Assembly: GCF_000009705.1 (NCBI RefSeq)
Contig: NC_003272.1
Span: 4,170,001-4,202,000, forward strand
Direction: 5' to 3'
Length of the DNA stretch: 32,000 bases
From: Nostoc sp. PCC 7120 = FACHB-418
GTDB lineage: Bacteria; Cyanobacteriota; Cyanobacteriia; Cyanobacteriales; Nostocaceae
The notes under the pieces were generated by a model. The model ran no database searches. It saw only the letters and a program-made list of their open reading frames with translations, and had not been told where the DNA came from. Below are positions 10,323-27,731 of this stretch, piece after piece. The translations under genes were made by a program, and so were the position numbers. Every line of letters begins with the position of its first letter. The first letter of the stretch is position 1.

Positions 10323-10368
10323 AGCGGGCGGCGGGAATCGAACCCGCATTAATAGCTTGGAAGGCTAT
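10323..10368 (-). tRNA. Truncated tRNA-Gly(UCC): only the 3' 46 nt (anticodon arm to discriminator); non-functional, probably an att-site remnant
   Basis: The minus strand reads ATAGC-CTTCCAA-GCTAT-TAAT-GCGGG-TTCGATT-CCCGC-CGCCCGC-T. That gives a perfect 5-bp anticodon stem, a loop with U33 and anticodon UCC, a canonical T-arm, the 3' acceptor strand and U73. The sequence 5' of it (..aaaggattttat) has no D-arm and no 5' acceptor strand. Confidence 0.8.
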
Positions 10369-10807
10369 ATAAAATCCTTTATTTACAACAGTTTCAGCTT
10401 ATTTTTACAATTTCTACACCCAATTTACACCCAACAGAACAATATTAAAATTTCCTGACTTTCAGATTTTTAATCAAGACTATTGATTGACAAAAGTAAA
10501 TCAATGTGTGTTTGAAATATTGAAGAAAATAGAATTGAATTTAAGTGATCGCCAACTTTCTCATTTTTAGCGATCGCGTGGTTCTACTACCCTATTACAA
10601 ATGGCGTTAATACAACAAATTGGAGATTTTTGTGACTGCCACCACCTACAGTGGGCGCTCTGCGCCATTGCTACCCATAAACCTTCAAACCGACAATCAG
10701 GTAATGCTTGAGAAAGTATAAAAGAAAACTTTTATATCTCAGATATCCCTTGTAATAGTATTGAAGCATTATTTAGCAAGATAGCTCTGTATTTTCGGGG
10801 TGTCGTG

Positions 10808-13800
10808 ATGAGCTTAATTAACCTGGATCTAGTTATCAGCGCAGTTACTAGCATTGCCAATCCTGTGATTAAAGAAAAAATTCTGCGTAGTGAGACAGTA
10901 ATTAAGTTACTCCAGCAATTTAACCTTGATCCAGAGCATCCACCTGCGGATTTTAGCGGTGTTTACGCCTACACCTTAGTCGAGTACGGTGTTGGCAAAC
11001 CAAAAGCATTTCTGGAATTATTTCGACAAGAGGCAATTAAACAGGCTTTTCGCAAAGCATTAGATCATAATAACCCCTCAATTCTGCTGTCTGAGGTTGA
11101 TACTTTTCTTGATGCTTGTACTTTGGGTGATGAAATCAGAAGCTTAGAACTGGACGTGAGAAGAGAGGTAGCTGCATTTGCGACTGTGTTTATTGAAGTC
11201 GCCAAACGCAGTCGCACACCTGCTGATGTCTTGATGAATCAACAGATTGGTTCTTTGCATAAAAGGATTGCTGGTATTCAAGAACAACTGGAGAGATTGC
11301 CTACACTGGAAGGAATTCGGACAGAAATAGCACGATTAGCAGCCCAGAATTATCCAGCATTAACCCCAACTGCCACTGAAAATCAATGTAGAGCGATCGC
11401 CTTAGCCCAACAAATGCGAGGTTGGTTTGAAACCTTGGGCTACCGCCTAGAAAAATATGAAATCTGGGCAGAAGAATATTTTGAATGGATTATCAACGTT
11501 CCCGTCCGCCGCAGTTATGACCGCATTCTTGTACGTGGCGTTGCGGGAGAAGTGAGACTGAGTGATGTTATGGCGTTGTGTCAATCAGTTAATCAACAAA
11601 AAACTGATGAAGGCTGGTTAGTAAGTACCCGTCGCATTTCCCGCGCAGCCAGGGATGAAGTCAAGAAAGAAGAAAATCGTCACCTTGACTGCTTTACATT
11701 TGACGAACTGATTGATTTAGATGCTGACTTTAGTGGTTATCTTGATTGGTTAGAAGCGGAAATCAAACGCCGCAAGATTGATCAAAAATATGTACCCCTT
11801 GCTTGTACTAAAGAAGAAATTGATCCAGTAACTAAAAGGCGAATTGGTATCAGCCGTTATGAAGCAGAAGACGGTTGGATTGATGGTTACATCGACCTTT
11901 GGCTGGATGACCCTGCTAAAGAACATATTTCTATTTTGGGAGAATTCGGTACAGGTAAAACTTGGTTTGTCTTTCACTATGCTTGGACAGCACTCCAACG
12001 TTACAAAGATGCTCAAAGACGTGGTGTTGAACGTCCCCGTTTACCTTTAGTAATTACCCTGCGTGACTTTGCCAAGGCTTTAAATGTAGAAAATGTTTTG
12101 GCGGGTTTCTTCTTTACTCAACACAATATCCGCTTAAATAGCGAAGTTTTTGACCAACTCAACCGGATGGGTAAATTGCTGCTCATTTTCGATGGTTTTG
12201 ACGAAATGGCAGCAAAAGTTGACCGCCAACAGATGATTAACAATTTTTGGGAACTGGCAAAGGTAGTAGTTCCTGGTTCTAAAGTTATCCTCACCTGCCG
12301 TACTGAACATTTCCCAGAAGCGAAAGAGGGACGTGCTTTACTCAATGCAGAATTGCAAGCCTCTACAAACAAACTAACCGGGGAAACACCACAATTTGAA
12401 GTTTTGGAACTGGAGAAATTCAACGATGAACAAATACGGCAGGTTTTGTTATACCAAGCTGAAGAAGCTACAGTTGAACAAATCATGGGTAATTCGCAGT
12501 TATTAGACTTAGCCCGTCGTCCTGTGATGACTGATTTAATCTTAGAAGCATTGCCAGATATTGAGGCCGGTAAACCTATTGATATGTCACGGGTTTATCT
12601 GTATGCAGTGCGGCACAAGATGGAACGAGATATCAAAGCAGAACGTACTTTTAATTCCTTGGCAGATAAATTGTACTTTTTATGCGAACTATCTTGGGAG
12701 ATGCTGTCTACTGACCAAATGAGTCTGAATTATCGCTTGTTCCCAGAACGTATTCGTCGCTTATTTGGTTCTGTTGTGCAAGAAGAGAAAGATTTAGATC
12801 ACTGGCATTATGACATGATGGCGCAGACAATGCTTGTCCGTAATGCTGACGGGGATTACACTCCTGCCCATAGGTCGCTGTTAGAGTTTTTTGTGGCGTA
12901 TAAATTTGCCGCAGAATTAGGAGCGTTAGCTAGGGATTTTACAGAAGTAGGTCAGGCACAGTCAGGTTTGGATAGTAGTACAGCATCTATTGACTATACT
13001 TGGTCTGGTTATTTTTCACGTCAGTTAGACTCTACTGGTTGTAGAGAAGTAATTGCACCACTAAGGCAATTTAAAAGTGAATTTCTGGATAAGTTGAGAG
13101 AAACTTTTGGTAAAGCAAAACTTACCAAAGCAGTGATAGATCTGTTGTTGCCAATGTTAGATGATAACGAGCCTCTTATTAAAATTATTGAGGCAACGCG
13201 AGGGAGAACTGAGGATGAAGTAAATTATGTTGGCGGAAATGCAGCTACGTTGCTAGTAAAGTTGAACAAGATGGTATTAGAGGGGAGAGACCTTTCTCAT
13301 ACTGTAATTATAGGTGCGGATTTTACTAATACCAGTTTGCGGTGTGTTAATTTTACAGAGGCGAATCTAGCTTATTCTGTTTTTACGAAAATCTTAGGTA
13401 GTGTTTTGACTGTAGCATTTAGTCCAGATGGTAAACTTTTTGCTACGGGCGATAGTGGGGGCATAGTTCGCTTTTGGGAAGCGGCTACTGGGAAAGAACT
13501 TTTGACTTGTAAAGGACACAACAGTTGGGTAAATTCTGTTGGCTTTAGTCAAGATGGAAAGATGCTTGCCAGTGGTAGTGACGACCAGACAGTACGGCTA
13601 TGGGATATCAGCAGTGGTCAATGCCTTAAGACATTTAAGGGTCACACCAGTAGAGTACGTTCTGTAGTGTTCAGTCCAAATAGTTTAATGCTGGCCAGTG
13701 GTAGTTCTGACCAGACAGTGCGACTATGGGATATCAGCAGTGGTGAATGCCTTTATATCTTTCAAGGTCACACTGGCTGGGTATATTCTGTGGCCTTCAA

Positions 13801-15385
13801 TTTAGATGGGTCAATGCTTGCTACTGGTAGTGGTGACCAAACAGTACGTTTATGGGATATCAGCAGTAGCCAATGCTTTTACATTTTTCAGGGACATACC
13901 AGTTGCGTACGTTCCGTAGTATTTAGTTCAGATGGAGCAATGCTTGCCAGTGGTAGTGACGACCAGACAGTACGGCTATGGGATATCAGTAGTGGCAACT
14001 GCCTTTACACTTTGCAGGGACACACTAGTTGCGTACGTTCAGTAGTATTTAGCCCAGATGGAGCGATGCTTGCCAGTGGTGGTGACGACCAGATCGTGCG
14101 CTTATGGGATATCAGCAGTGGCAACTGCCTTTACACTTTACAGGGATACACCAGTTGGGTACGTTTTTTAGTCTTCAGTCCAAATGGGGTGACGCTTGCC
14201 AATGGTAGTTCTGACCAAATAGTGCGATTATGGGATATTAGCAGTAAGAAATGCCTTTATACCTTACAAGGTCACACTAATTGGGTAAATGCCGTCGCCT
14301 TCAGCCCAGATGGGGCGACTCTTGCGAGTGGTAGTGGTGACCAAACAGTGCGGCTATGGGATATCAGCAGTAGCAAGTGCCTTTACATCTTGCAGGGTCA
14401 CACAAGTTGGGTAAATTCTGTCGTCTTCAATCCAGATGGATCAACGCTTGCAAGTGGCAGTTCTGACCAAACAGTGCGGCTATGGGAGATCAACAGTAGC
14501 AAATGCCTTTGCACCTTCCAGGGTCACACAAGTTGGGTAAATTCCGTCGTCTTTAATCCAGATGGGTCAATGCTTGCTAGTGGGAGTTCTGATAAAACAG
14601 TGCGGCTATGGGATATCAGCAGTAGCAAATGCCTTCACACCTTCCAGGGACACACCAATTGGGTAAATTCCGTCGCCTTTAATCCAGATGGGTCAATGCT
14701 TGCTAGTGGTAGTGGTGACCAAACAGTGCGGTTATGGGAGATTAGCAGTAGCAAATGCCTTCACACCTTCCAGGGACATACCAGTTGGGTGAGTTCTGTT
14801 ACCTTCAGTCCAGATGGAACAATGCTTGCCAGTGGTAGTGACGACCAGACAGTACGGCTATGGAGTATCAGTAGTGGTGAATGTCTTTATACTTTCTTGG
14901 GACATACTAATTGGGTAGGTTCCGTCATCTTTAGTCCAGATGGAGCAATACTTGCCAGTGGTAGTGGTGACCAAACAGTGCGCCTATGGAGTATCAGCAG
15001 TGGGAAATGCCTCTACACCTTGCAGGGTCACAATAATTGGGTAGGCTCCATTGTCTTTAGTCCAGATGGAACATTACTTGCCAGTGGTAGTGACGACCAA
15101 ACAGTGCGGCTATGGAATATTAGCAGTGGAGAATGCCTCTACACTTTGCATGGACACATCAATTCGGTACGTTCTGTAGCTTTTAGTTCAGATGGGTTAA
15201 TCCTTGCTAGCGGTAGCGATGATGAGACAATTAAGCTTTGGGATGTTAAGACGGGTGAGTGTATAAAAACTTTGAAAAGTGAAAAAATTTATGAGGGTAT
15301 GAATATTACTTCCGTTAGAGGTTTAACAGAAGTGGAGAAAGCTACTCTCAAAACACTAGGCGCAGTGGAAAACAGGGAAATATAA
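10808..15385 (+). CDS. STAND NTPase: N-terminal helical domain, degenerate Mrr-like restriction-endonuclease-fold region, NACHT, pentapeptide repeats and 15 WD40 repeats; NLR-like
   Basis: The ORF opens at GTG 10805, and ATG 10808 is the likelier start. The Walker A motif GEFGTGKTW is encoded around 11938-11965, and Walker B is [47 protein letters not shown] is pentapeptide-like. It is followed by 15 x 42-aa WD40 units ([28 protein letters not shown]) and the typical cyanobacterial tail YEGMNIT..GLT...LKTLGAVE. Confidence 0.9.
13400..15286. repeat. Tandem array of 15 x 126-bp units encoding the WD40 blades
   Basis: Direct reading shows long stretches shared between units (e.g. gaccaaacagtgcggctatgggatatcagcagtagcaa(a/g)tgcctt recurs). 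Differences cluster at a few codons per unit. Confidence 0.9.
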
Positions 15386-15692: not shown

Positions 15693-15956
15693 ATGGAAAT
15701 AACCAAAATATCAAATGAAGGACAAGTGATTCTTCCTGAAGAATTACTAAAAGCCTCTGGCTGGGAAATCGGACAGGAATTAATAGCAATTAATATGGGT
15801 GATGGGATTCTTATCAAACCCAAGAAGCCCTTTGCAGAAACTACATTAAATGATGTTGCAGGCTGCTTAAAATATCAAGGTGCACCCAAATCTTTAGAAG
15901 ATATGAATGATGCCATCCGTCAAGGTATTGAGGAATCATGGCATGGTTGCAGTTGA
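15693..15956 (+). CDS. vapB: AbrB/MazE/SpoVT-fold type II antitoxin (VapB-like)
   Basis: 87 aa. MEITKISNEGQVILPEELLKASGWEIGQELIAINMGDGILIKP is a typical SpoVT-AbrB swapped-hairpin motif. It overlaps the start of a PIN remnant. Confidence 0.75.
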   Translation: MEITKISNEGQVILPEELLKASGWEIGQELIAINMGDGILIKPKKPFAETTLNDVAGCLKYQGAPKSLEDMNDAIRQGIEESWHGCS

Positions 15957-15999: not shown

Positions 16000-16152
16000 C
16001 TTCAAAATATTTGATTAGGCGATCGCCCACTTTTTCCCTTACATTAATTTGGTAAGAGCGATCGCATGACCAATTCTGACACATTTCTAATGTGCGATCG
16101 CCATAACAACTCTATGCCAGGATATGAATATCCTTGTTATTAACAACTATAT

Positions 16153-16404
16153 ATGTACAGCCTAGAAATCCCAGAAGGTCAAGCTGAATTTGCTGAACTA
16201 CTCCGTCGAGTGCGAGACGGAGAAGAAGTGATTATTTCTCAAGCAGGCACTCCTATCGCGCGTATAGTCCCAATTGCGGAACAGAAATTACCTCGAATTC
16301 CAGGTTTAGACCGTGGTCAGGTAACAATTTCCCCAGACTTTGATGCTCCCCTCCCCGACGAGGTGCTAAATGCTTTTATCAACCCAACAGACGCAGAAGC
16401 ATGA
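16153..16404 (+). CDS. Phd/YefM-family type II antitoxin
   Basis: 83 aa. It contains ..AEFAELLRRVRDGEEVIISQAGTPIARIVPI.. and a C-terminal DFDAPLPDEVLNAF motif. It overlaps the downstream PIN gene by 4 nt (ATGA). Confidence 0.8.
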   Translation: MYSLEIPEGQAEFAELLRRVRDGEEVIISQAGTPIARIVPIAEQKLPRIPGLDRGQVTISPDFDAPLPDEVLNAFINPTDAEA

Positions 16405-16787
16405 GAGCATTACTTGATACCCATACGTTTATTTGGTGGGTTATTGACGATAACCGACTCTCATCTACAGCTAGAAATATAATTGCTGACCCAGGGAATA
16501 ACTTATTTTTTAGTGCTGCAAGCGCATGGGAAATTGTAATTAAAGTTCGTTTGGGTAAATTAAATTTACCAGAACCACCAGAAACTTACATTCCCAATCG
16601 GTTGACTATAAATCGATTTGAAAGTTTGCCTATTCAAATGAATCACGCTTTACAAGTCGTTAATCTACCTGCTTTACATCAAGACCCTTTTGACCGAATA
16701 ATTATCGCTCAAAGTCAAGTGGAAAAAATGCCCATAATTACTGTAGATAATAAAATCACACAGTATCCTGTTGATGTAATTTGGTAG
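16401..16787 (+). CDS. vapC: PIN-domain toxin (VapC family)
   Basis: 128 aa. It has LLDTHTFIWW (first Asp), SAASAWEIVIK and DPFDRIIIAQ, and is translationally coupled to the antitoxin. Confidence 0.85.
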   Translation: MRALLDTHTFIWWVIDDNRLSSTARNIIADPGNNLFFSAASAWEIVIKVRLGKLNLPEPPETYIPNRLTINRFESLPIQMNHALQVVNLPALHQDPFDRIIIAQSQVEKMPIITVDNKITQYPVDVIW

Positions 16788-16855
16788 CCAAATTAAAGAT
16801 GAATAAAACTCAATCAGTGGCAGAAAGGAAAGGATAGCCCATCGCCGCAGTCAAG

Positions 16856-17041
16856 CTATTCTTCATCGTCTCCCTCTTCACCATACTGTGCTGGTGGTTC
16901 GCCATGATATTCAAGAATCTTGGGCTTTTTCATTTTGACATTGGCAGGCTCAATCTTTTCTAGCTGCAAATCAAACTCCCACTCATCCAGTAAATCAAAG
17001 GTAAATTGCAGATGATTTCTCAGGAATAGTCGTTTAATCAT
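16856..17041 (-). CDS. Small ORF, possibly a gene fragment (acidic C-terminus)
   Basis: 61 aa. DEWEFDLQLEKIEP...PKILEYHGEPPAQYGEE is faintly reminiscent of the C-terminal part of pRiA4b-ORF3-like proteins, but it is far too short to be a full domain. Confidence 0.25.
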   Translation of the reverse strand: MIKRLFLRNHLQFTFDLLDEWEFDLQLEKIEPANVKMKKPKILEYHGEPPAQYGEEGDDEE

Positions 17042-17145
17042 CTCAATGAAAATCTAATTGTGTTGTTGGTTTTTAAATGTGAGCTACTAGCAGGAAGTGG
17101 GAATACTTATTCATAAGGCTATTTAATATATTCTCATGGCTCAGT

Positions 17146-19311
17146 ATGATTCCACAAACTCTTGAAGAAGTCGTCTCAGATATTCTCAATCAATTTTTTC
17201 AGAACAAAGGTATAGGTGCTACTGCTACTTCTAGGAACACGTTACTTAAAATTATTTTAGAGTCTGCTGAAATTCCAGAGCCAGAAAGTACAACAGCACT
17301 CATTTTAGACGAAGTTTCTAGGTTAAAAACAACATCATGTAAAAAAATTAAGATACTTGCAAAGCAGAAAAATACTTTTGATGTTGCTTGGTGTCGAGCA
17401 TTTGATATCAAATCTCAGGCTGAACCTATAATAACTGAGCCAGAATTAGAAACAGAAAACCATAGCTCAAATCGGATATCTAATGATGAATTTCAGCAGG
17501 CTCTGGAAGAATCTACGAAGACTGCTAAGAATGCTTATCAAAAAACTTTCAATTACTATAAAGAAATCGAGGCAATTTTAAACAATCTTAACCTTGATTT
17601 AGATAAAAGCGTATTTCATTTATTAAAACAAAAAGATGCTAATAACTTCGACTTTGCACAGGTTTTGAAAAAAATAGCAGGTGAGATTGAAAGCCATGCT
17701 AGTGAAGGGCTTCAAGAACTAAAGAAATCCTTAGAAGCAAAAAGGCAACATTTAGCAGATTTTACGGTTGTTTTATTTGGTAGAACTAAAGCTGGAAAAA
17801 GTACTATTCGTGAAGCTTTAACCCGTGGCGATGGCAGTACAATTGGCACAGGTTCACAACGAACAACTAGAGATGTCAGAGAATATAAATGGAAAGGATT
17901 ACGCTTAATAGATACACCAGGCATTGAAGCTTATCAAGGAGACGAAGATAAACAAAAAGCTGTAGAAATCGTACATGAATCTGACATAGTTATCTTTCTT
18001 ACTAGTGATGACTCTGTTCAGCCCGGTGAATTTAATGCTATGGCTTGGCTGCAAGAAATCAAAAAATACTTTTTTGTAATTCTTAATATTAAGTATGATA
18101 TTGATAATCCAAAACGCCTGGAAAGGTTTATTAAAAATCCCGAAAAAATCTTTGATTCACAAAGGTTAGATGAACACAAACGTCATATTCGTAATTATAT
18201 TCATCACAGTTTAGGCATGGAAGAAGTAGCAATTATTTGTATTCATGCTTATGCAGCATTTCTAAGCAATCAGCCTCAATATAGTAATGTTGCTAATAAA
18301 CTTTGGGAATTAAGCCGGATAGAAGAAATTTATAGTTTAATCGTATCAGAAATCTACGCAAGAGGAAAACAAAGACGCTGGAATACCTTTTTTGATGCAA
18401 TCATATATTTCCTCGATGTAATCATAAAGATGTTAGAAAGGCATAAAGAATCTCTAGTGTCTCAGGCAGATTTTATGCAAGATAAGCGATCAGAGATTGA
18501 AGGTGTTTTTCAAGAGAGTGTTAAAAACGGAAAAATTAAAATTCAAAGATCATGTAAAAATTCATTTAGCAGAATCAAACAATGGATTCCTAACTTTGTT
18601 GATGAATATCTAGGGAAAGACATTGCTCAGTCTGAGTATCAAAAGCGTATGAATAAAGAAAAACAAAAAATTGAAACTGCTATGGAGAACTTATTTGAAG
18701 AGATAGTCCAGGAATTAGTGGCTGCTTTAAAGGAGTTTCAAAGGCAATATCAATATGATATGGGAACTATTAAATTAGAATCTACTGATTTTGGAAACTA
18801 TCAACAATGGCAAACTGGAAAAATTATGAAGTGGGTAGGTGTTGGGTTAAGTACAACCTCTGCTGTTGCTTTTGGTATCGGTGCTTTTGCAGCAGCTAAT
18901 TTTTGGAATCCTGTAGGATGGATAGCTGGTGTGACATCTATCGTCGTTGGAATTGTCAGTTGGTTCTTTGGTGAGCAAGATAAAAAATTATGGCAAAAAG
19001 CTAAACAAGAAGCTAAAGAAAATCTTTGGAAGAGCTTGGATCAATCAGAGCAAGAAACTTGCAAAAATTACCAAAAATTACTAGATACAAATATTGCTGT
19101 TAGGGCTAAAACTGAAGTGCTGGAACAGGTGGATATTTATATTAAAGGAATTCTAATCATTGTGGATGATATAAAAAAAGCAATTTCACAACTTGAGAAA
19201 ATCAAAAAAGAAATGAAGCGAGAGTCAGATTATACAGGAGTAAGGGATAGATTGCCAAATCCAAGAAATTTCAAGGGTAATTCGTCAGTTATAGCTGATG
19301 AATTATTGTAG
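17146..19311 (+). CDS. Dynamin-like / TRAFAC-class GTPase with a C-terminal transmembrane hairpin ('paddle'), 721 aa
   Basis: The G1 motif FGRTKAGKST is encoded around 17779-17805. G3 is LIDTPG and the G4-like motif is LNIKYD. There are long helical regions and the hydrophobic hairpin WVGVGLSTTSAVAFGIGAFAAANFWNPVGWIAGVTSIVVGIVSWFF (around 18832-18972), followed by a helical tail. This is the domain order of BDLP/DynA/LeoA-type proteins. Confidence 0.8.
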   Translation: MIPQTLEEVVSDILNQFFQNKGIGATATSRNTLLKIILESAEIPEPESTTALILDEVSRLKTTSCKKIKILAKQKNTFDVAWCRAFDIKSQAEPIITEPELETENHSSNRISNDEFQQALEESTKTAKNAYQKTFNYYKEIEAILNNLNLDLDKSVFHLLKQKDANNFDFAQVLKKIAGEIESHASEGLQELKKSLEAKRQHLADFTVVLFGRTKAGKSTIREALTRGDGSTIGTGSQRTTRDVREYKWKGLRLIDTPGIEAYQGDEDKQKAVEIVHESDIVIFLTSDDSVQPGEFNAMAWLQEIKKYFFVILNIKYDIDNPKRLERFIKNPEKIFDSQRLDEHKRHIRNYIHHSLGMEEVAIICIHAYAAFLSNQPQYSNVANKLWELSRIEEIYSLIVSEIYARGKQRRWNTFFDAIIYFLDVIIKMLERHKESLVSQADFMQDKRSEIEGVFQESVKNGKIKIQRSCKNSFSRIKQWIPNFVDEYLGKDIAQSEYQKRMNKEKQKIETAMENLFEEIVQELVAALKEFQRQYQYDMGTIKLESTDFGNYQQWQTGKIMKWVGVGLSTTSAVAFGIGAFAAANFWNPVGWIAGVTSIVVGIVSWFFGEQDKKLWQKAKQEAKENLWKSLDQSEQETCKNYQKLLDTNIAVRAKTEVLEQVDIYIKGILIIVDDIKKAISQLEKIKKEMKRESDYTGVRDRLPNPRNFKGNSSVIADELL

Positions 19312-19384
19312 TTATTTGTCTTGTCTTTAAATCACACTTAAGTGTTTGCATATTTTTTTTAGAAAGCAGTAGAGGTAGTGAGAA

Positions 19385-21058
19385 ATGTCTGAAATGAAAT
19401 TTAAGCAAGTTGCTAAACAAGTAGAAGATGTATGTTCTGAAAGTTTGAGAATATTATCTTCATCTACCGATAGTGAGATAGATGTATTTGCAAGAGATTT
19501 TGAAATTTTCATTCATGAATATCAACAAAAAGCACAATTAACTATTGCCTTTGTTGGTCAATATAATGCGGGTAAGTCTACTTTGATTAAAGCTCTTACG
19601 GGCGATACATCTGTCCGAATCAGTGCTGAAATTTGTACAGATAGGATTACTGAATATCTCTGGAAAGAAGTTATTCTAATTGATACCCCAGGAATTTATG
19701 CAGGTAGAACAGATCACGATCAAATCACTCTAGAACAAATTTCAAAAAGTGATTTACTCATCTTTGTTGTTCCCAACGAATTATTTAACCCTCAAGGCGG
19801 AGATTTTTTTAAAAGAGTTGCCAATGAAATGCAGCGAGTTGGTCAAATGCTCTTAGTAGTTAATAAAATGAGTCGTGAACGCGGTAAGCCAGAAGATTTG
19901 CTTAAAAGCCTTTTGGAAGTTGTAGAGCCTCATCACCCTAATGATTTTCATACTTGTTTTATTGATGCTGATTCTTATTTTAATACTCAGTGTGAAAAAG
20001 ATGAAGATGAAAAAGAATTTTTACTCGAAGAAGCTAATTTTGATGCTTTCCTGACATCGTTACATAAATTAATCGATAAGAATAAATTCTATGCAAGACT
20101 GTTAACACCTCTCAACCGTGCCTTAGATATATTAGAACGGTCTTACAATATTTTGAGTACAGATAATAAATCCGCTAGAGATTTCTTAGAACTACTCCAT
20201 CGGAAAATGTTACTTATTAAGACATCTCAAATAAGATTTAGAAATTGTTATATAGCTGAATTTAACAATCTTGAACACGGAATATTAATGATTGGCGAAG
20301 GTGTTGCTAGTAAAGTTGACGGGAGACATAGCGAAAAAGATATTAACTTGACAATTAAAAAAGCCGAGAAAGAAATAGAATCAACTACAAAGCAAACAAT
20401 AGAGAAAATACAGTTGGGCTTGGAAGAGGAATTAAGTAAACTTCAAATTCAACTCGAACAATTATTACAATCAAGGTTGGGTCGCTCTTTAGTCGAAGAA
20501 GTGCAAGTTTCATCAACAGGTAAAAAACAAGTTGATTATGAAGAAGTTGAGAAAACTCCAGAAATACCATCCTTTTTAAGAAAAAGTCCTGAAACTGTAC
20601 GGGCTATAGGAAATTTTGCGTCGGCAGTTTCTAGAGACCTAGTTTATAACGTCGGTAAATTTTTTGGTGTAAAATTTCGTCCTTGGGGAGCAGTGAACGG
20701 GGCTAAATTCATCAGAGGTTTAGGGCCTATTATTGGAGGTGTTGGTCTAATTCTAGAAATTTTTCTTAATGCTAAACAGGAACAGGATGAAGCAGAATAT
20801 GAGCAGAAACTCCGGGAAGCAAGATCAGATTTACGCCAGAGTTTTCGACAATTAGCTTCAGAAATTAGAAGTGAATATGAAGAGAATATTAAAAGTGAGA
20901 TTATTTCTGGCTTTTATGAATCTGAACTTCAAGATGTTGAACGTCAGCGAGATGAATTGCGAAATGATGAAGGTTCAAAAATTGAAATAGTTAATCGAAT
21001 CAAACATATAATCCAAAAAATTAAGAAGCAAATAGTCACAATAGAAAATAATGCTTAA
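19385..21058 (+). CDS. Dynamin-like GTPase, second member of the pair, 557 aa
   Basis: The G1 motif VGQYNAGKSTLIKALTG is encoded around 19556-19582. G3 is LIDTPG and the G4-like motif is VVNKMS. It has a helical stalk, the hydrophobic segment GLGPIIGGVGLILEIFL and a charged coiled-coil tail. It lies 73 bp downstream of the first GTPase and has a GAGG-type RBS. Confidence 0.8.
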   Translation: MSEMKFKQVAKQVEDVCSESLRILSSSTDSEIDVFARDFEIFIHEYQQKAQLTIAFVGQYNAGKSTLIKALTGDTSVRISAEICTDRITEYLWKEVILIDTPGIYAGRTDHDQITLEQISKSDLLIFVVPNELFNPQGGDFFKRVANEMQRVGQMLLVVNKMSRERGKPEDLLKSLLEVVEPHHPNDFHTCFIDADSYFNTQCEKDEDEKEFLLEEANFDAFLTSLHKLIDKNKFYARLLTPLNRALDILERSYNILSTDNKSARDFLELLHRKMLLIKTSQIRFRNCYIAEFNNLEHGILMIGEGVASKVDGRHSEKDINLTIKKAEKEIESTTKQTIEKIQLGLEEELSKLQIQLEQLLQSRLGRSLVEEVQVSSTGKKQVDYEEVEKTPEIPSFLRKSPETVRAIGNFASAVSRDLVYNVGKFFGVKFRPWGAVNGAKFIRGLGPIIGGVGLILEIFLNAKQEQDEAEYEQKLREARSDLRQSFRQLASEIRSEYEENIKSEIISGFYESELQDVERQRDELRNDEGSKIEIVNRIKHIIQKIKKQIVTIENNA

Positions 21059-21203
21059 TTAAAGTTATATAGTGGTTTGCTGAATGCGATAAGACTCTAT
21101 ACTGGCATAGTTTGTCAGTTCAATGGGGAGGCGATCGCCCATTAGTATACAGTGGCAGCAGCTAGCTAAACCAACGCATCTATCAACAATATTAGTAGCT
21201 AAT

Positions 21204-21315: not shown

Positions 21316-23646
21316 ATGTCAGAAGCAATTGACAAGAAATCTTTGAGCGAACGTGATATCTGTACAAAGTACATTACGCCTGCTCTAGTTAATCGCGGCT
21401 GGAATATCAACACTCAGATTCGTGAGGAAGTGACGCTGACAAAAGGTAGGGTGATTGTTAGGGGTAAGCTTACTAGTCGAGGTGAGCAGAAACGCGCTGA
21501 TTATGTGCTGTATCACAAACCCGGTGTACCACTGGCTGTAATTGAAGCTAAAGATAATAATCACTCGGTCAGTGCGGGAATGCAACAGGCGATCGCAACT
21601 GGTGAACTAATTGATGTACCATTCATCTTTAGCTCGAATGGCGACGCTTTTATGATGTGTGACTGTACAGTCACCGACGGACAGCGAGAACGGGAAATCC
21701 CCCTTGACCAGTTCCCAACACCGGAGAAACTTTGGCAAAAATACTGTGATTGGAAGGGAATTGACACCGACATTCAGCCAATTGTTTCTCAAGATTACTA
21801 TCCCAGTCCTGATAAAAAACAGCCACGCTATTATCAACAGATTGCCATTAACCGGACAATTGAGGCGATCGCGAAAGGAGAAAACCGCATTCTGTTAGTG
21901 ATGGCGACGGGTACGGGTAAGACTTTTACAGCTTTTCAGATTATCTGGCGGTTGTGGAAGTCAGGGGCGAAAAAGCGTATCCTGTTCTTGGCAGACCGCA
22001 ACATTTTGGTTGATCAAACTAGAGTCAATGACTTTAAACCCTTTGGCTCAAAAATGACCAAAATTAAGCAGCGACAGATAGATACATCTTACGAGATTTA
22101 TCTATGTCTGTATCAGGCGGTAACGGGAAATGAAGAGGCGAAAAACATTTATCGGCAGTTTTCACCAGGTTTTTTTGACTTAATTATTATAGATGAGTGC
22201 CATCGGGGAAGCGCGTCTGAAGATTCGGCATGGCGAGATATTTTGGCATATTTTAGCAGTGCAACGCAGATTGGCTTGACTGCTACCCCAAGGGAAACAG
22301 AAGAAGTTTCTAATAGTCTTTATTTTGGCGATTCAATTTTTACCTATTCGCTCAAACAAGGGATTGAAGATGGCTTTTTAGCTCCCTATAAAGTTATTCG
22401 CATTGACTTTGATACAGATTTGAGTGGCTGGAAACCGAAGCCAGGACAAAGAGATAAATATGGTAAAGAAATTCCTGACCAAGTATTTAATCAGCGAGAT
22501 TTTGATAGAACTCTGGTTTTAGAGAAGCGTACCGAGTTAGTCGCGCGGATTATTTCTGATTATCTCAAATCAAGCGATCGCTTTGCCAAAACTATCGTTT
22601 TTTGTGAGACGACTGACCACGCAGAACGGATGCGGGTGGCGTTGGTGAATGAGAATGCTGATTTGATGGCGGAGAATAGCCGCTACATTATGCGAATTAC
22701 TGGGGATGATGCTCAGGGTAAAGCAGAATTAGATAATTTCATTGACCCTGAAAGTAAATATCCTACGATTGTTACTACCTCTGAGTTACTGACGACTGGC
22801 GTTGATGCTAAAACTTGCAAGTTGATTGTTTTAGACCAGCGCATCCTGTCTATGACTAAATTTAAGCAAATTGTTGGTCGCGGTACGCGCATTGATGAAG
22901 ACTATGGCAAAATGTTCTTCACCATTATCGATTTTAAGAAAGCAACACAGTTATTTGCTGACCCTGAGTTTGATGGTGAACCTGTACAAATTTATCAGCC
23001 CAAACCAGTTGATCCAATTGTTCCACCCGATAATGGAGACGATGAGGTAATCATTGATGGTGAGATTACCCGCAAGCAAAAGCGGGAGAAGTATGTAATT
23101 GCAGACGAAGAGGTGTCTGTTGCTTTTATTCGTGAGCAGTACCACGGTAAGGACGGTAAGCTGATTACGGAATCGATTAAAGACTATACTCGCAAAACAG
23201 TTAGTCAGGAGTACGCCTCATTAGATGCTTTCTTGAAGAAATGGCACTCTACCGAACAAAAGCAGGCTATTATCCAAGAGCTACAGGAATTGGGTGTACC
23301 TTTGGAAGCGTTAGAAAAAGAGATTGGCAAGGGTTTTGACCCATTAGACTTGATTTGTCATGTTGTCTTTGACCAACCGCCACTAACACGGAAAGAAAGG
23401 GCGAACAATGTCCGCAAGCGTAATTATTTTAGCAAGTATAGTGAACAGGCTCGTAAGGTAATAGATGCGCTTTTGGATAAATATGCGGATGAAGGGATTG
23501 AAGATATTGAAAAATTGGATGTGCTGAAGGTTCATCCTTTTGATAAAGTGGGTACACCAATAGAAATTATTCAGCTTTTTGGCAGTAGAAAAGAATATCT
23601 TAATGTACTTCAGCAGCTAAAAACGCAACTTTATGAGATAGCCTAG
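21316..23646 (+). CDS. hsdR: Type I restriction enzyme R subunit (EcoEI-like C-terminal domain)
   Basis: 776 aa. The N-terminal PD-(D/E)xK nuclease region reads ADYVLY...AVIEAKD. The SF2 motor has VMATGTGKT, and IIDECH is encoded at 22192-22203. There are also TATPRE and helicase C motifs (TTGVD, QIVGRGTR). The C-terminal block ..KYADEGIEDIEKLDVLKVHPF.. is typical of the EcoEI R C-terminal domain. Confidence 0.95.
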   Translation: MSEAIDKKSLSERDICTKYITPALVNRGWNINTQIREEVTLTKGRVIVRGKLTSRGEQKRADYVLYHKPGVPLAVIEAKDNNHSVSAGMQQAIATGELIDVPFIFSSNGDAFMMCDCTVTDGQREREIPLDQFPTPEKLWQKYCDWKGIDTDIQPIVSQDYYPSPDKKQPRYYQQIAINRTIEAIAKGENRILLVMATGTGKTFTAFQIIWRLWKSGAKKRILFLADRNILVDQTRVNDFKPFGSKMTKIKQRQIDTSYEIYLCLYQAVTGNEEAKNIYRQFSPGFFDLIIIDECHRGSASEDSAWRDILAYFSSATQIGLTATPRETEEVSNSLYFGDSIFTYSLKQGIEDGFLAPYKVIRIDFDTDLSGWKPKPGQRDKYGKEIPDQVFNQRDFDRTLVLEKRTELVARIISDYLKSSDRFAKTIVFCETTDHAERMRVALVNENADLMAENSRYIMRITGDDAQGKAELDNFIDPESKYPTIVTTSELLTTGVDAKTCKLIVLDQRILSMTKFKQIVGRGTRIDEDYGKMFFTIIDFKKATQLFADPEFDGEPVQIYQPKPVDPIVPPDNGDDEVIIDGEITRKQKREKYVIADEEVSVAFIREQYHGKDGKLITESIKDYTRKTVSQEYASLDAFLKKWHSTEQKQAIIQELQELGVPLEALEKEIGKGFDPLDLICHVVFDQPPLTRKERANNVRKRNYFSKYSEQARKVIDALLDKYADEGIEDIEKLDVLKVHPFDKVGTPIEIIQLFGSRKEYLNVLQQLKTQLYEIA

Positions 23647-23671
23647 TTAATCATCTTTAAATTTGTTTTGT

Positions 23672-24664
23672 ATGGACGATCCAATAAAATACATTGACTC
23701 ATCTATTAAAGGTTTACAGGATAAACTATCTACATCTAATTCGGTGTTAGATATTGAAGTACAGGCAGAACTTTCTCATATTTTATCTATCTACCGACGA
23801 TTAAAAACTGCTTTTTTAATTGCCAAGGTTCAAGATAACAAAAATAAGCTAGAACATATTGAAGCAATAGCGCCTAATCTTAATTTGGCAATTTCTGCAT
23901 TACAAGTAAATTCTAACAAGGTTTTGGCAAGGAACATTAGGCGAGATGCAGAATACTTCATACGGAGAATTGAAAATCCTGTCACTGCATTTTTCGTGAA
24001 TAATTTCTTTAAATTTCTTTATTCTACAGAAACTCATACAAAAGTAGTTATCGGTCTGTTTTTAGCTTTACCTATTCATCTATTAGCACCGATTGTTTTA
24101 GCATATATACTTAGTACATCCAATCTTTATTTAAAACCTTTATTTAAAGAACAATTAACAAAGCCCATATCTTCAGAAAATTTAGTAGAAGCACAAAAGC
24201 CAGAAGTAAAAACTCAAATAAAGTTGACAGAATATGAGTTTTATGAGGCATCCGTGCTGCTGGTATTATCAGCAATGTCAGGAGCGACTGGTAGTGTTGT
24301 AAGTATTATGTTGAGGCTGGATCAATATGGCAATCCACGGTATAAAGAAACCTTACTTCCTATATTTGTGGGAGCATTCAAGCCAGCAATTGGGGCATTT
24401 TTAGGGATTTTTGTTTTTGCTCTCATCAATTCTACACTTCTGCCTATTACAATTTCTAAAGATGAGGAAAAGCCAATTAATAGATGGTTGGCGTTTTTAG
24501 CAATTACTTTTGTTGTGGGCTTTAGTGAAAGACTAGCAAATGATGTTGTTAGTCAAGCAGAAAGAATTGTACCAGGGAGAGGTGCTTCACAGGAAAAAAG
24601 CGAAACTTCTGCATCACAATTATCTGCACCTACAGAAGAAGATAAAGAAAACGATAAAAGTTAA
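23672..24664 (+). CDS. Hypothetical multi-pass membrane protein (helical N-terminal domain plus about 4 TM segments) inserted between hsdR and hsdM
   Basis: The ORF opens at TTG 23663, and ATG 23672 is the likelier start. The hydrophobic segments are VVIGLFLALPIHLLAPIVLAYIL, ASVLLVLSAMSGATGSVVSIML, LLPIFVGAFKPAIGAFLGIFVFALI and WLAFLAITFVVGF, followed by an acidic/Ser-rich tail. It lies 25 nt after the hsdR stop and ends 7 nt before the hsdM start. Confidence 0.7.
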   Translation: MDDPIKYIDSSIKGLQDKLSTSNSVLDIEVQAELSHILSIYRRLKTAFLIAKVQDNKNKLEHIEAIAPNLNLAISALQVNSNKVLARNIRRDAEYFIRRIENPVTAFFVNNFFKFLYSTETHTKVVIGLFLALPIHLLAPIVLAYILSTSNLYLKPLFKEQLTKPISSENLVEAQKPEVKTQIKLTEYEFYEASVLLVLSAMSGATGSVVSIMLRLDQYGNPRYKETLLPIFVGAFKPAIGAFLGIFVFALINSTLLPITISKDEEKPINRWLAFLAITFVVGFSERLANDVVSQAERIVPGRGASQEKSETSASQLSAPTEEDKENDKS

Positions 24665-24671
24665 GTAAGCA

Positions 24672-26114
24672 ATGTCAATTAGCACTACAATTAAGACTAT
24701 TCAAGATATCATGCGGAAAGATGCGGGCGTTGATGGTGACGCGCAACGCATTAACCAGTTAGTTTGGATGATATTCCTCAAGGTTTTTGATGCCCGTGAA
24801 GAAGAATATGAACTGTTAGAAGATAATTATAAATCTCCCATTCCTGAAGGTTTGCGTTGGCGGAACTGGGCAGCAGATTCCGAAGGTATCACAGGAGATG
24901 GTTTACTAGATTTTGTAGATAATGCTTTATTTAAAACCCTTAAAGAACTAAGAACTACGGCAACTGATGCCCGTGGGCAGATGATTGGTAAAGTGTTTGA
25001 GGATGCCTACAACTATATGAAAAATGGCACTCTCATCCGCCAAGTAATTAATAAGCTCAATGAAGTTGATTTTAATAAAAAAGACCAGAAAAAACAGTTT
25101 AGCGAAATTTACGAGAAAATTCTCAAAGATTTGCAGAGTGCGGGAAATGCCGGAGAATATTATACTCCCCGTGCGGTGACAAAGTTTATTGTAGATAGAA
25201 TCAAGCCGCAATTAGGGGAAATTGTATTTGATCCAGCTTGCGGTACAGGTGGCTTTTTAACAGCAGCAATTGATTACATTCGCCAACATTTTCAAAGTGC
25301 TGATGTACCAGAAATTCTGCAACGGACGATTCGCGGAACTGAGAAAAAGCCGTTACCTTTTAACCTTTGTGTCACGAATCTGATTTTAAATGGTATTGAT
25401 GTGCCGTCAGCAGAACATGATAATACTTTGGCACGACCATTGCGCGATTACAGTCCTCACGAACGGGTGGATGTAATTATCACTAATCCGCCTTTTGGTG
25501 GGATGGAAGAAGATGGAATTGAGGACAATTTCCCAGCTACCTTCCGCACCAGAGAAACGGCAGATTTATTTCTGGTGCTGATTGCTCATTTACTCAAGGA
25601 AGGCGGTAGAGGTGCAATAGTTTTACCAGATGGTACGCTGTTTGGCGAAGGTGTAAAAACGCGGATTAAAGAAAAACTCCTGCAAGATTGCAATCTGCAT
25701 ACAATTGTGCGCTTACCAAATGGCGTATTTAATCCCTACACAGGTATTAAAACTAATCTGCTATTTTTCACTAAAGGGGAACCCACAGAAACGATTTGGT
25801 ATTATGAACACCCTTACCCAGCAGGTTATAAGTCATACTCGAAAACTAAGCCGATTCGCTTTGAGGAGTTTGCACCGGAGCAAGAATGGTGGGATAACCG
25901 CGAGGAAAATGAATTTGCTTGGAAAGTTTCAATTGCAGATTTGAAGGCGAATAATTACAACCTAGATATTAAAAATCCTCACAAAGTTGATGTAGAACAC
26001 GCTGATTTAGATGAAATGTTAGCAGATCATCAAAAACTTATGGCTGAATTGGGTGAGGTGCGGAGTAAGTTGAAATTTGAATTAATGGAAGCGTTGGAAA
26101 GAGATGAAGCTTGA
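24672..26114 (+). CDS. hsdM: Type I R-M system N6-adenine DNA methyltransferase subunit
   Basis: 480 aa. It has an HsdM N-terminal domain (IMRKDAGVDGDAQRINQLVWMIFLK), the AdoMet motif I DPACGTGGFL, and motif IV IITNPPFGG encoded at 25485-25499. Confidence 0.95.
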   Translation: MSISTTIKTIQDIMRKDAGVDGDAQRINQLVWMIFLKVFDAREEEYELLEDNYKSPIPEGLRWRNWAADSEGITGDGLLDFVDNALFKTLKELRTTATDARGQMIGKVFEDAYNYMKNGTLIRQVINKLNEVDFNKKDQKKQFSEIYEKILKDLQSAGNAGEYYTPRAVTKFIVDRIKPQLGEIVFDPACGTGGFLTAAIDYIRQHFQSADVPEILQRTIRGTEKKPLPFNLCVTNLILNGIDVPSAEHDNTLARPLRDYSPHERVDVIITNPPFGGMEEDGIEDNFPATFRTRETADLFLVLIAHLLKEGGRGAIVLPDGTLFGEGVKTRIKEKLLQDCNLHTIVRLPNGVFNPYTGIKTNLLFFTKGEPTETIWYYEHPYPAGYKSYSKTKPIRFEEFAPEQEWWDNREENEFAWKVSIADLKANNYNLDIKNPHKVDVEHADLDEMLADHQKLMAELGEVRSKLKFELMEALERDEA

Positions 26115-27731
26115 AAGTTTTTTTGATAATTTTGAATTGTTAACTGATGCGCCAAATGCGAGCGCAAAGCTGCGGGATTTGATTTTGCAATTGGCTGTTA
26201 AAGGTAAGCTAGTTAATCAAGATTTAAATGATGAATCAGCCTCAATTCTTTTGGAGAATGTCCAAGCTCAAAAAGAAAAAATAACTGGTGGGCGAAAAAT
26301 TGAAAAAGAAAATTTTTTGTTAGAAATTGAAGAGAAAGAATATTTTTATAATATACCTCCAAAATGGATATATACAAGATTAGAAAATATTAGCTTTTTT
26401 TAGGAGGATATGCTTTTAAAAGTAATTCCTACGTACAATACTCAAATAACCAAATAATAAGACTAGGAAATGTAAAAAATGACGAAATACTTTTGAATCA
26501 GAATCCAGTTTTTATAACAGATGAGGTTGCTAGTGAGAGCGATAAATTTTTAATTCATGAGAATGATATTCTCATAACTATGACTGGGACAAAGAATAAA
26601 AGAGATTTTTGTTTTACTGCCATAGTAGATGCAACTCACATTGCTGAAAAGAAGCTTTACTTAAATCAAAGAGTTGGCTGTATAAGAATAATTAAACCAG
26701 TTTATAACCAATTAGTTAACATTTTTTTGAAATCTCCCATAATTGTAGATTATCTACTATCATCTGCAACTGGAACTGCAAATCAAGCCAATATAGGAGC
26801 CAATACTCTACGGGAACTCCCATTCCCTCTTCCACCCCTTGCAGAACAAAAACGCATTGTAGAGAAGTGCGATCGCCTGCTTTCCATCTGCGACGAAATC
26901 GAAAAACGGCACCAGCAAAGGCAAGAGAGCATTGTGAGGATGAATGAGAGTGCGATCGCTCAACTCCTCTCATCCCAAAATCCCGACGATTTCCGCCAAC
27001 ACTGGCAGCGCATTTGCAATAATTTTGACTTACTCTACAGCATTCCTGAAACTATTCCTAAACTGCGTCAGGCGATTTTGCAATTGGCTGTGCAGGGTAA
27101 ACTAACTAATCAAAGTAGTAAAGAAATCAAAAAAATATCAGATACTCACAAAGTATCTGATTATGTCAGCATCTTAAATGGTTATGCGTTCAAAAGCACT
27201 TGGTTTATCAATGATGGGATTCGTCTTTTGCGGAATGCAAACGTTGGTCATGGTGATTTAAGATGGGACGATGTAGCCACAATATCTGAAGAAAGAGCGC
27301 AAGAATTTCAAAGATTCAAGCTAGATATAGATGATATAGTTATATCCCTTGATCGTCCTATCATTTCAACCGGATTAAAAGTTGCAAGAATTACTAAGAA
27401 TGACCTTCCATGCCTTCTTTTACAGCGTGTTGGAAAATTCGAGTTTAAAACCGATAAAGTTATCCCTGATTTTTTCTTCCTGTGGCTACAGTCTCCAATT
27501 TTCATAAATGCGATAGATCCAGGCAGAAGTAATGGAGTACCACATATTTCATCCAAAAGTATAGAAGCGATTCTCTTCAATCCTCCTTCCAGAGAAGAAC
27601 AAAAACGGATTGTAGAGAAGTGCGATCGCCTGATGTCTCTCTGTGATACCCTAGAAGCCAAACTAAAACAAGGGCGAGACAGCAGCGAGAAACTGATGGA
27701 AGTTGCAGCAAAACAGGTTTTAACAGTCTAA
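26104..27731 (+). pseudogene. hsdS: Type I R-M specificity subunit, interrupted by a frameshift in a T7 tract (ORFs 26104..26403 and 26493..27731)
   Basis: The first ORF carries the N-terminal conserved helix (LRDLILQLAVKGKL) and the start of TRD1, and stops at ..ENISFF*. The frame offset by one nt continues from 26400 as LGGYAFKSNSYVQYSNNQIIRLGNVKNDE.., which parallels TRD2 (ILNGYAFKSTWFINDGIRLLRNANVGHGD). The central and C-terminal conserved regions (EQKRIVEKCDRL x2) are present. The start overlaps hsdM by 11 nt. Confidence 0.85.

Follow-up and report, generated by a model that had tools for sequence, protein, structure and literature searches.

A LeoBC–LeoA gene pair, very likely an Eleos system, in a defence island of Nostoc sp. 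PCC 7120

The "Dynamins" defence system has been described by Millman et al. (2022), who showed that an operon of Bacillus vietnamensis NBRC 101237 protects B. subtilis against two phages only, AR9 and PBS1, both of them jumbo phages, and that P-loop mutants of either gene abolish the protection (bioRxiv 10.1101/2022.05.11.491447). About 1% of genomes, some of them cyanobacterial, carry the system, and 60% of its copies adjoin known defence systems. The authors left the mechanism open, raised the idea of Mx-like trapping, and reinterpreted the Leo operon as a defence operon (bioRxiv 10.1101/2022.05.11.491447). Cury et al. (2022) renamed the system Eleos, composed of LeoA and LeoBC, and linked LeoBC to the human GIMAPs (bioRxiv 10.1101/2022.12.12.520048). 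A literature search found no mechanistic study of Eleos. Here we describe a pair of dynamin-like genes in Nostoc sp. PCC 7120 that very likely belongs to the Eleos family. The pair lies in a stretch of 32,000 nucleotides (NC_003272.1, positions 4,170,001 to 4,202,000, forward strand), which is called the window below and to which positions refer unless another locus is named. The two-gene system itself has already been described and named; the locus presented here is a cyanobacterial member with a clade-specific accessory module.

Three other groups of dynamin-like proteins (DLPs) are close enough for comparison. The leoC-leoB-leoA operon of enterotoxigenic Escherichia coli (ETEC) H10407, for which the structure of LeoA is available (4AUR; Michie et al. 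2014, PMC4159319), has been interpreted as a vesicle-release or virulence factor. DynA of B. subtilis is a DLP whose anti-phage effect needs membrane binding; it clusters at the membrane and delays lysis (PMC8844932; PMC12998192). DynA is one fused, two-headed housekeeping core protein that acts on phages generally at the population level, whereas Eleos consists of two accessory genes and was specific for jumbo phages in the one test done. Lastly, BDLP1/BDLP2 of Nostoc punctiforme and DLP1/DLP2 of Campylobacter resemble the present pair in being tandem paralogues with a neck/trunk stalk and a hydrophobic paddle, but they have no detectable sequence similarity to it beyond the G domain, and the LeoBC hairpin has its own N-x-W-N-P-x-G-W signature.

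The pair consists of two co-directional open reading frames, ORF1 and ORF2, whose extents and 73-bp separation were confirmed as given in a first-pass annotation of the window (Table 1). Both proteins are matched over nearly their full length by the PADLOC models of the system, a check which that annotation had proposed. The LeoBC model (PDLC03841) matches ORF1 with an E-value of 1.1e-108 (362.9 bits, residues 127-687 against model positions 11-577 of 601), and the LeoA model (PDLC03839) matches ORF2 with an E-value of 3.6e-112 (374.3 bits, residues 3-553 against model positions 7-554 of 559); the PADLOC tables give no curated cut-off for these models. ORF2 also passes the Pfam cut-offs of Dynamin_N (43.2 bits, cut-off 27) and DLP_helical (43.3 bits, cut-off 25.5). 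ORF1 and ORF2 are paralogous over their full length (hhalign probability 99.2%, E 1.4e-19, ORF1 163-696 against ORF2 1-552). The closest relatives of the pair are all from Nostocales, and the core identity to the Bacillales homologues is ~40-45% for LeoBC and 46-48% for LeoA. In all related loci the two genes are co-directional with LeoBC first and are separated by 21-125 bp, an arrangement compatible with an operon. The Nostoc pair would be labelled by standard defence-finder tools, and in this respect the finding is an ordinary one.

The AlphaFold2 model of ORF1 (mean predicted local distance difference test score, pLDDT, 76) starts with a small α/β domain, which a disordered linker joins to two neck helices; the G domain comes next, and then two very long helices, a hairpin, and a long C-terminal helix. 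The helices lie at residues 113-160, 169-200, 393-488, 494-540, and 609-695. When this model was compared with the PDB by Foldseek, the best E-value was obtained for BDLP (2j69, 3.9e-10) and the second best for ETEC LeoA (4aur, 1.5e-9). Further matches were IniA, MFN1/2, SynDLP, and Cj-DLP, the last with the best TM-scores (0.41/0.48), and then IRGs and GIMAP2. As modelled, the fold of ORF1 is that of the dynamin superfamily, with stalk helices on both sides of the G domain. The profile matches, together with the likeness of the model to BDLP, LeoA, IniA, and the mitofusins, bear out the earlier description of the pair as bacterial dynamin-like proteins. The likeness to the animal IRG, GIMAP, and Mx proteins is limited to the G domain and the adjacent helices and implies no orthology; at the level of the system, Eleos links bacterial immunity to these dynamin-family immune GTPases of animals.

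The pair shares with the Bacillus Eleos the two-gene operon in the order LeoBC, LeoA, the intact P-loops of both proteins, and the defence-island setting. It differs in that cyanobacterial LeoBC has an extra N-terminal α/β module and linker (~110 residues) and is without the ~120-residue KH tail that was seen in the sampled Bacillales homologues. The Nostoc host also has thylakoid membranes. With ETEC LeoABC, the pair has in common the gene order, the paralogous partners, and the glycine-rich paddle of LeoA. On the other hand, ETEC has two genes, leoC and leoB, in place of the single upstream gene of Nostoc, and LeoC carries a transmembrane anchor at its N-terminus, which the Nostoc protein lacks.

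Comparison with related genomes shows that the pair is part of a unit of ~4 kb (leader, leoBC, and leoA), which is found in five other Nostocales genomes with 77-89% DNA identity and differing neighbours. DNA homology to Mojavia pulchra (L001), Tolypothrix FACHB-123 (L002), and the metagenome-assembled genome Nostoc P12649 (L003) starts exactly at position 17040 in 3/3 cases, the DNA upstream being different, and stops 0-38 bp past the LeoA stop codon (84-89% identity). The homologous block starts at 17086 in Scytonema (L007, 87%) and at 17113 in Anabaena azotica (L008, 77%). In Mojavia, the pair lies inside a type I restriction-modification (R-M) locus, in the order hsdR-hsdS-PRiA4-like, leoBC-leoA, hsdM-hsdM. 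In Tolypothrix, it is flanked by a NACHT-WD40 gene and by a different, oppositely oriented type I R-M system. The neighbours in Scytonema are ParE and PIN toxin genes, and in A. azotica a transposase gene. Among the more distant homologues, those of Anabaena sp. WA102 (L004) lie by PIN/HicAB modules, those of Phormidium (L009) by a helicase/methylase cluster, and those of Saccharibacillus sacchari (L010) by BREX and NERD/TOTE genes. R-M, BREX, STAND, toxin-antitoxin, or helicase/methylase neighbours are present at 7 of the 8 intact loci examined, a count from a small sample and not a statistical test. The copy in Nostoc P12649 (L003 10001-13226) lies among housekeeping genes, and both of its genes are pseudogenes: LeoBC has a ~734-bp deletion (the equivalent of 17247-17980, P-loop included) and an early stop, and LeoA has a stop at codon 51. 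The lesions are independent of each other, but since this is a metagenome-assembled genome, an assembly error is conceivable. The orthologues are thus found in differing neighbourhoods, with one copy decayed, and not as syntenic core genes. No convincing terminal repeats or integration signatures were found at the cassette borders. A 16-nt inverted repeat at 16087/21130 was considered as a border and rejected, as it is an extended HIP1 palindrome that is not conserved at the borders of the relatives.

The base composition of the pair also deviates from its surroundings. The guanine-cytosine (GC) content is 0.33-0.34 over the pair and 0.40-0.48 in the flanks, and in seven cyanobacterial loci it is 6-12 points lower in the pair than in its flanks, in agreement with the AT-richness reported at first. 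The complete lack of HIP1 sites over the pair, which had been taken as a further sign of import, needs a distinction. The window contains 23 HIP1 sites against 0.21 expected by chance, which marks it as cyanobacterial DNA, and none lies between 16101 and 21131. This 5.0-kb gap is only marginally the longest of the window, as three others measure 4.3-4.6 kb, and the absence is therefore weak evidence inside the window alone. Across the seven loci, the pair holds 2 HIP1 sites in ~27 kb, where the density in the flanks (0.44-1.59 per kb) would predict tens; here the depletion argument is strong. The cassette is an accessory, mobile, and compositionally deviant unit in defence islands. The earlier view of an imported defence module, rather than the housekeeping BDLP, is upheld by the defence neighbours and the variable neighbourhoods. 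Positions 17040-21059 likely represent a self-contained Eleos anti-phage cassette.

The nucleotide-binding motifs were compared with family alignments of 46 homologues for ORF1, for which 546 homologues were found, and 38 homologues for ORF2. In ORF1, the G motifs are G212-RTKAGKST-220 (P-loop), Thr241 (G2), D256-TPG-259 (G3), and N314-I-K316-Y-D318, and the columns G212, T214, G217, K218, S219, T220, T241, D256, P258, G259, N314, and K316 are invariant. In ORF2, they are G58-QYNAGKST-66 (P-loop), Thr85, D100-TPG-103, and N160-KMS-163. G1, G2 (Thr), and G3 (DTPG) are invariant in both families, as are the G, K, and S/T residues of the P-loops. The P-loops and DTPG motifs of the first-pass annotation are thus present and conserved, while its G4-like motifs are present in an atypical form: N314 and K316 are the sole invariant residues of the ORF1 "NxKxD" and D318 is not conserved, and the "NKMSRE" of ORF2 (160-165) is a family signature with a serine in place of the canonical G4 aspartate.

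Hydrophobic segments were located by a Kyte-Doolittle scan with a 19-residue window. ORF1 has two, at 564-584 and 586-610, and no others, while the sole segment of ORF2 is at 442-463 (FIRGLGPIIGGVGLILEIFLNA), a glycine-rich, LeoA-type paddle; the earlier description of a two-helix hairpin in the first protein and a single segment in the second is therefore accurate. The turn of the ORF1 hairpin, N585-x-W587-N588-P589-x-G591-W592, is nearly invariant, and in the model the two longest helices flank the hairpin. In both proteins, the hydrophobic region appears to sit between long helices before a putative C-terminal helix resembling a GTPase effector domain, and in a profile-profile comparison the second arm of the ORF1 hairpin is the part that pairs with the paddle of ORF2. 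The hairpin is a predicted membrane anchor at the stalk tip. No N-terminal hydrophobic segment or signal peptide was found in ORF1 or ORF2 by the same scan. The description of the pair as membrane-anchored fits ORF1 with its hairpin; ORF2, having a single glycine-rich paddle, probably associates with the membrane peripherally, without an anchor. The intact motifs, the delimited cassette, and the hairpin signature provide handles for work on the cyanobacterial system.

The first-pass annotation gave the N-terminal extension of ORF1 as ~200 residues, but it is ~105 residues in comparison with a minimal LeoBC (106 residues before the P-loop in Nodularia, ~104 in Bacillales). It is composed of an α-β-β-α-β-β domain (residues 1-89, pLDDT 85-91 in both models) and a disordered linker of ~20 residues (90-110). 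Residues 113-200 are the neck helices common to all LeoBC proteins, from ~163 onwards also shared with LeoA. The module is absent from the Bacillales and Nodularia LeoBC homologues. A sensitive search found it in at least 197 other cluster representatives, 58-1120 residues long. Among the 147 listed representatives (P0241-P0387), only a handful of which are LeoBC-like, it is N-terminal in 142 and present in 1-4 copies, often in tandem. Its C-terminal partners are very diverse and include EcsC, GUN4 with TPR, WD40, pentapeptide repeats, and DUF726. Those carriers that are named are cyanobacterial. The consensus, ~85 residues long, reads ..AIAxxLNQxLxxxGIxxKVSxKxDCLKVVLES....VKVYGxQ...FDxxW. Neither Pfam, NCBIfam, nor the cluster names provide a name for the module, and comparison with the PDB and with viral predicted structures gave no significant fold match (best E 0.02). 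A weak but recurring likeness to type II KH domains (S3, Era; TM-score 0.5-0.6), of interest in view of the KH domain in Bacillales LeoBC, was rejected as unsupported, with E-values of at least 0.2 and a different topology (α-β-β-α-β-β).

The sampled Bacillales LeoBC proteins instead have a ~120-residue C-terminal extension with a NusA-type KH domain (PF26594, with weak KH_1 and KH_NusA_C matches); examples are S. sacchari (L010 10001-12148) and P0024, P0026, P0040, P0045, and P0057, among others. This tail hints at nucleic-acid binding in the Bacillales branch of Eleos. Since an N-terminal module in the cyanobacteria is set against a C-terminal KH domain in the sampled Bacillales, the accessory module of LeoBC, as judged from the protein sequences, is clade-specific and swappable. 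The contrast provides a natural comparison for what recruits or triggers Eleos. In the cyanobacteria, the module is most likely a clade-specific interaction or localisation module that takes the place of the C-terminal KH domain. A sensor or adaptor role had been suggested for the extension at first; the module occurs promiscuously at the N-terminus of cyanobacterial proteins, and a general role of interaction or localisation seems more likely than that of a dedicated phage sensor, which is not evident. A further-reaching proposal is that cyanobacterial Eleos is a functionally distinct variant, in which the KH domain has been traded for the α/β module with a new trigger or membrane target, e.g., thylakoid or septal, and that the 4-kb cassette moves as a discrete unit, with a preference for sites within or beside type I R-M loci, by a mechanism leaving no terminal repeats; we regard this proposal as rather unlikely.

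By analogy with the Bacillus system, we hold with moderate confidence that the pair is an active anti-phage defence in its Nostoc host. A mechanism can be outlined from the homologues and from the proposal of Michie et al. LeoBC and LeoA would form a heterotypic complex via their GTPase domains, and LeoBC would attach the complex to a membrane on its cytoplasmic side. Upon phage infection, GTP-driven oligomerisation might remodel, tether, or seal the membrane, so that productive infection or lysis would be blocked. DynA serves as the model for this effector step. Alternatively, the complex might trap a phage structure in an Mx-like manner. Membrane sealing or remodelling, rather than trapping, is a tentative assignment made by analogy, and it may well prove wrong. 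The P-loops of both proteins would be needed for defence, as they are in the B. vietnamensis system.

Several observations weigh against the assignment to Eleos or to defence. The Dynamin_N profile, another check proposed in the first-pass annotation, is passed by ORF2 but gives 16.5 bits for ORF1, under the cut-off of 27. The similarity to ETEC LeoABC lies under the detection of phmmer and hmmsearch, and ORF2 reaches 85.6 bits (E 3.8e-24, best stretch 248-524) against a cut-off of 325 for the NCBIfam LeoA/HP0731 model (NF041922), a name that the sources do use for P0232, a fragment with 82% identity, and for P0196, a Bacillus protein with 48% identity. When the PDB was searched by sequence with the single proteins and the family profiles, LeoA and BDLP were not reached, with no match to BDLP (2J68/2J69) at E ≤0.01. 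The searches returned generic TRAFAC G domains only (EngA, Era, FeoB, and Irgb10, the last being the best match of ORF1 with E 1.9e-5), and the A1 profile gave none. As these searches reach the G-domain core only, the tie to the solved DLPs rests on the profile libraries and the predicted fold. In the latter, the hairpin of ORF1 is modelled at low confidence (pLDDT <50). The G4 motif is non-canonical in both proteins, so that specificity for guanine cannot be taken for granted. In ETEC, LeoA on its own did not bind nucleotide, and Michie et al. therefore proposed its activation by heterodimerisation with LeoBC (PMC4159319). The AT-richness of the pair may partly stem from a coiled-coil composition rich in Lys, Glu, Ile, and Asn rather than from a foreign origin, and the contexts of the A. 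azotica pair, and of the Nostoc P12649 pair before its decay, are not clearly defensive. Finally, the phage experiments on Eleos come from Bacillus.

Other functions have to be weighed against defence. A housekeeping pair of membrane-remodelling DLPs, acting in thylakoid biogenesis or repair, septation, or the heterocyst envelope like BDLP1/BDLP2 or the Streptomyces DynAB, could have come to lie in a variable region by chance. The fold class is shared with BDLP, SynDLP, and IniA, a clade with ~40% identity is found widely among bloom-forming Nostocales, and DLPs are common in cyanobacteria and often tandem (PMC5827413). However, the close relatives are patchy, the cassette has sharp edges and changing neighbours, both genes have become pseudogenes in Nostoc P12649, and the strong profile matches are to defence models, with no BDLP match at the sequence level. 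Moreover, Anabaena WA102 has a separate Dynamin_N/YjcZ/Dynamin_N cluster 4 kb from its Leo pair, and this coexistence argues that the Leo pair is not the housekeeping BDLP-type tandem. A housekeeping role is thus considered improbable. A slightly lower probability is given to a module for membrane-vesicle release instead of phage defence, as in ETEC, where knockouts of leoA or leoB cut vesicle-associated OmpA and Tat-GFP by ~50% (PMC4159319). Gene order and paralogy are the same as in ETEC, but LeoC has an N-terminal transmembrane anchor and LeoA has been reported as periplasmic, while the Nostoc proteins have neither a signal peptide nor a hydrophobic segment at the N-terminus; sequence search does not reach the distant ETEC LeoA, and Millman et al. 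read the Leo operon as defence. Vesicle release would also be compatible with defence, since vesicles can act as phage decoys.

It is very improbable that the cassette is an inactive relic that no longer functions in the Nostoc genome. The related copy in Nostoc P12649 has decayed, and in comparison with Mojavia and Tolypothrix the DNA just 5' of the leader has gained a toxin-antitoxin module and a gene remnant, yet the reading frames of both genes are unbroken, none of the family-invariant residues is missing, and the 106-bp leader is kept. The least probable explanation, with almost no weight, is that of ordinary translation or ribosome GTPases of the Era, EngA, MnmE, or RsgA kind. The G-domain matches to Pfam MMR_HSR1 and RsgA_GTPase and to the NCBIfam Era, Der, and MnmE models agree with it, as do the source names of homologues; however, these matches span ~110 residues of the G domain and remain far under the whole-protein cut-offs (for Era, 32 against 237 bits), and the ~450 further residues form a predicted helical DLP stalk with a hydrophobic tip. 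The PADLOC matches, the ORF1 model, its fold matches, and the paralogy of ORF1 and ORF2 refute this explanation. Most annotations of the homologues mislead ("50S ribosome-binding GTPase", "Era", "MnmE/TrmE", "RsgA", "EngB", "septin"), because they are driven by the G-domain match of ~110 residues alone, and names such as "ribosome-binding GTPase", "Era", and "MnmE" are wrong for full-length homologues.

Table 1. Features of the gene pair, in window positions.
Feature	Positions	Strand	Remarks
Leader/promoter region	17040-17145	+	106 bp, conserved in relatives; upstream edge of the mobile unit
ORF1, LeoBC-type dynamin-like GTPase, predicted membrane-anchored subunit of Eleos	17146-19311	+	721 aa (amino acids); PADLOC LeoBC, AlphaFold2 fold matches
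N-terminal α-β-β-α-β-β module, aa 1-89	17146-17412	+	Followed by disordered linker, aa 90-110; cyanobacterial-clade-specific
LeoBC GTPase domain, aa ~205-390	17758-18315	+	P-loop GRTKAGKST at 17779-17805; Pfam MMR_HSR1, E 3.2e-14
LeoBC hydrophobic two-helix hairpin, aa 564-610	18835-18975	+	Kyte-Doolittle and alignment conservation; predicted stalk-tip anchor
Intergenic spacer	19312-19384	+	73 bp; AGAGG/GGTAGTGAG ribosome-binding region 5' of the ORF2 ATG
ORF2, LeoA-type dynamin-like GTPase	19385-21058	+	557 aa; P-loop GQYNAGKST at 19556-19582; glycine-rich paddle, aa 442-463, at 20708-20773

Rfam and tRNA scans of the leader and the spacer gave no match. A scan for promoters and terminators gave as many hits as expected from shuffled sequence, and the end of ORF1 coincides in part with a weak stem-loop.

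In the window, the housekeeping genes fmt and glmS are followed in order by two divergent NACHT STAND genes, an orphan MazE-like gene, a Phd/PIN pair, the Leo pair, a type I R-M operon, and another PIN gene. The defence island starts directly 3' of glmS (4473-6374, +; GATase and SIS domains). In other bacteria, the site downstream of glmS is a classic hotspot of integration (attTn7); the window showed no Tn7-like genes. The two STAND NTPases both lie in HIP1-poor stretches. One is an NNH2-NACHT-HEAT protein of 1119 residues (6532-9891, -), and the other is an NNH5-NACHT-WD40 protein of 1526 residues with at least 15 WD repeats (10805-15385, +), which has the 67%-identical orthologue that adjoins the Leo pair in Tolypothrix. 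Between the two genes, Rfam calls a tRNA at 10323-10392 (-) with 31 bits against a gathering threshold of 29, while ARAGORN finds no tRNA there; the call may represent a tRNA fragment from an integration event.

The orphan MazE-like antitoxin gene (15693-15956) has no adjacent toxin gene and is followed on its 3' side by three HIP1-containing repeats of ~40 bp (16014-16136). Similar repeats are found 5' of the Leo cassette in Mojavia (L001 9672-9899) and Tolypothrix (L002 9629-9903). In these two genomes, the repeat region directly abuts the LeoBC leader, whereas in the window the two are parted by an inserted block of ~900 bp (16137-17039), which holds the Phd/PIN pair (16153-16787) and a PRiA4-like remnant. 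The remnant, an ORF of 61 residues (16856-17041, -), is derived by internal deletion from a 424-residue PRiA4_ORF3-like gene, of which the 5' and 3' ends are kept. A full copy of this gene is found in Mojavia (L001 14067-15341, -), where it is placed downstream of LeoA, and the order looks circularly permuted. A model of circular permutation was rejected: its sole basis is a similarity of ~65% over ~35 bp (L001 9895-9930 against 15340-15375), a weak hint of a recombination site.

Downstream of the Leo pair, the type I R-M operon consists of hsdR (21316-23646), hsdM (24672-26114), and hsdS (26493-27731). An ORF of 333 residues between hsdR and hsdM (23663-24664, +) contains several hydrophobic stretches and is matched by neither Pfam nor PADLOC; the R-M operon of Tolypothrix also holds an additional ORF, of 344 residues, which is unrelated to that of the window. 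A second small ORF, of 99 residues, lies between hsdM and hsdS (26104-26403, +). It has no Pfam match and is similar to part of HsdS of Mojavia (47% over 51 residues), and it may be an hsdS fragment left by a rearrangement of the specificity gene.

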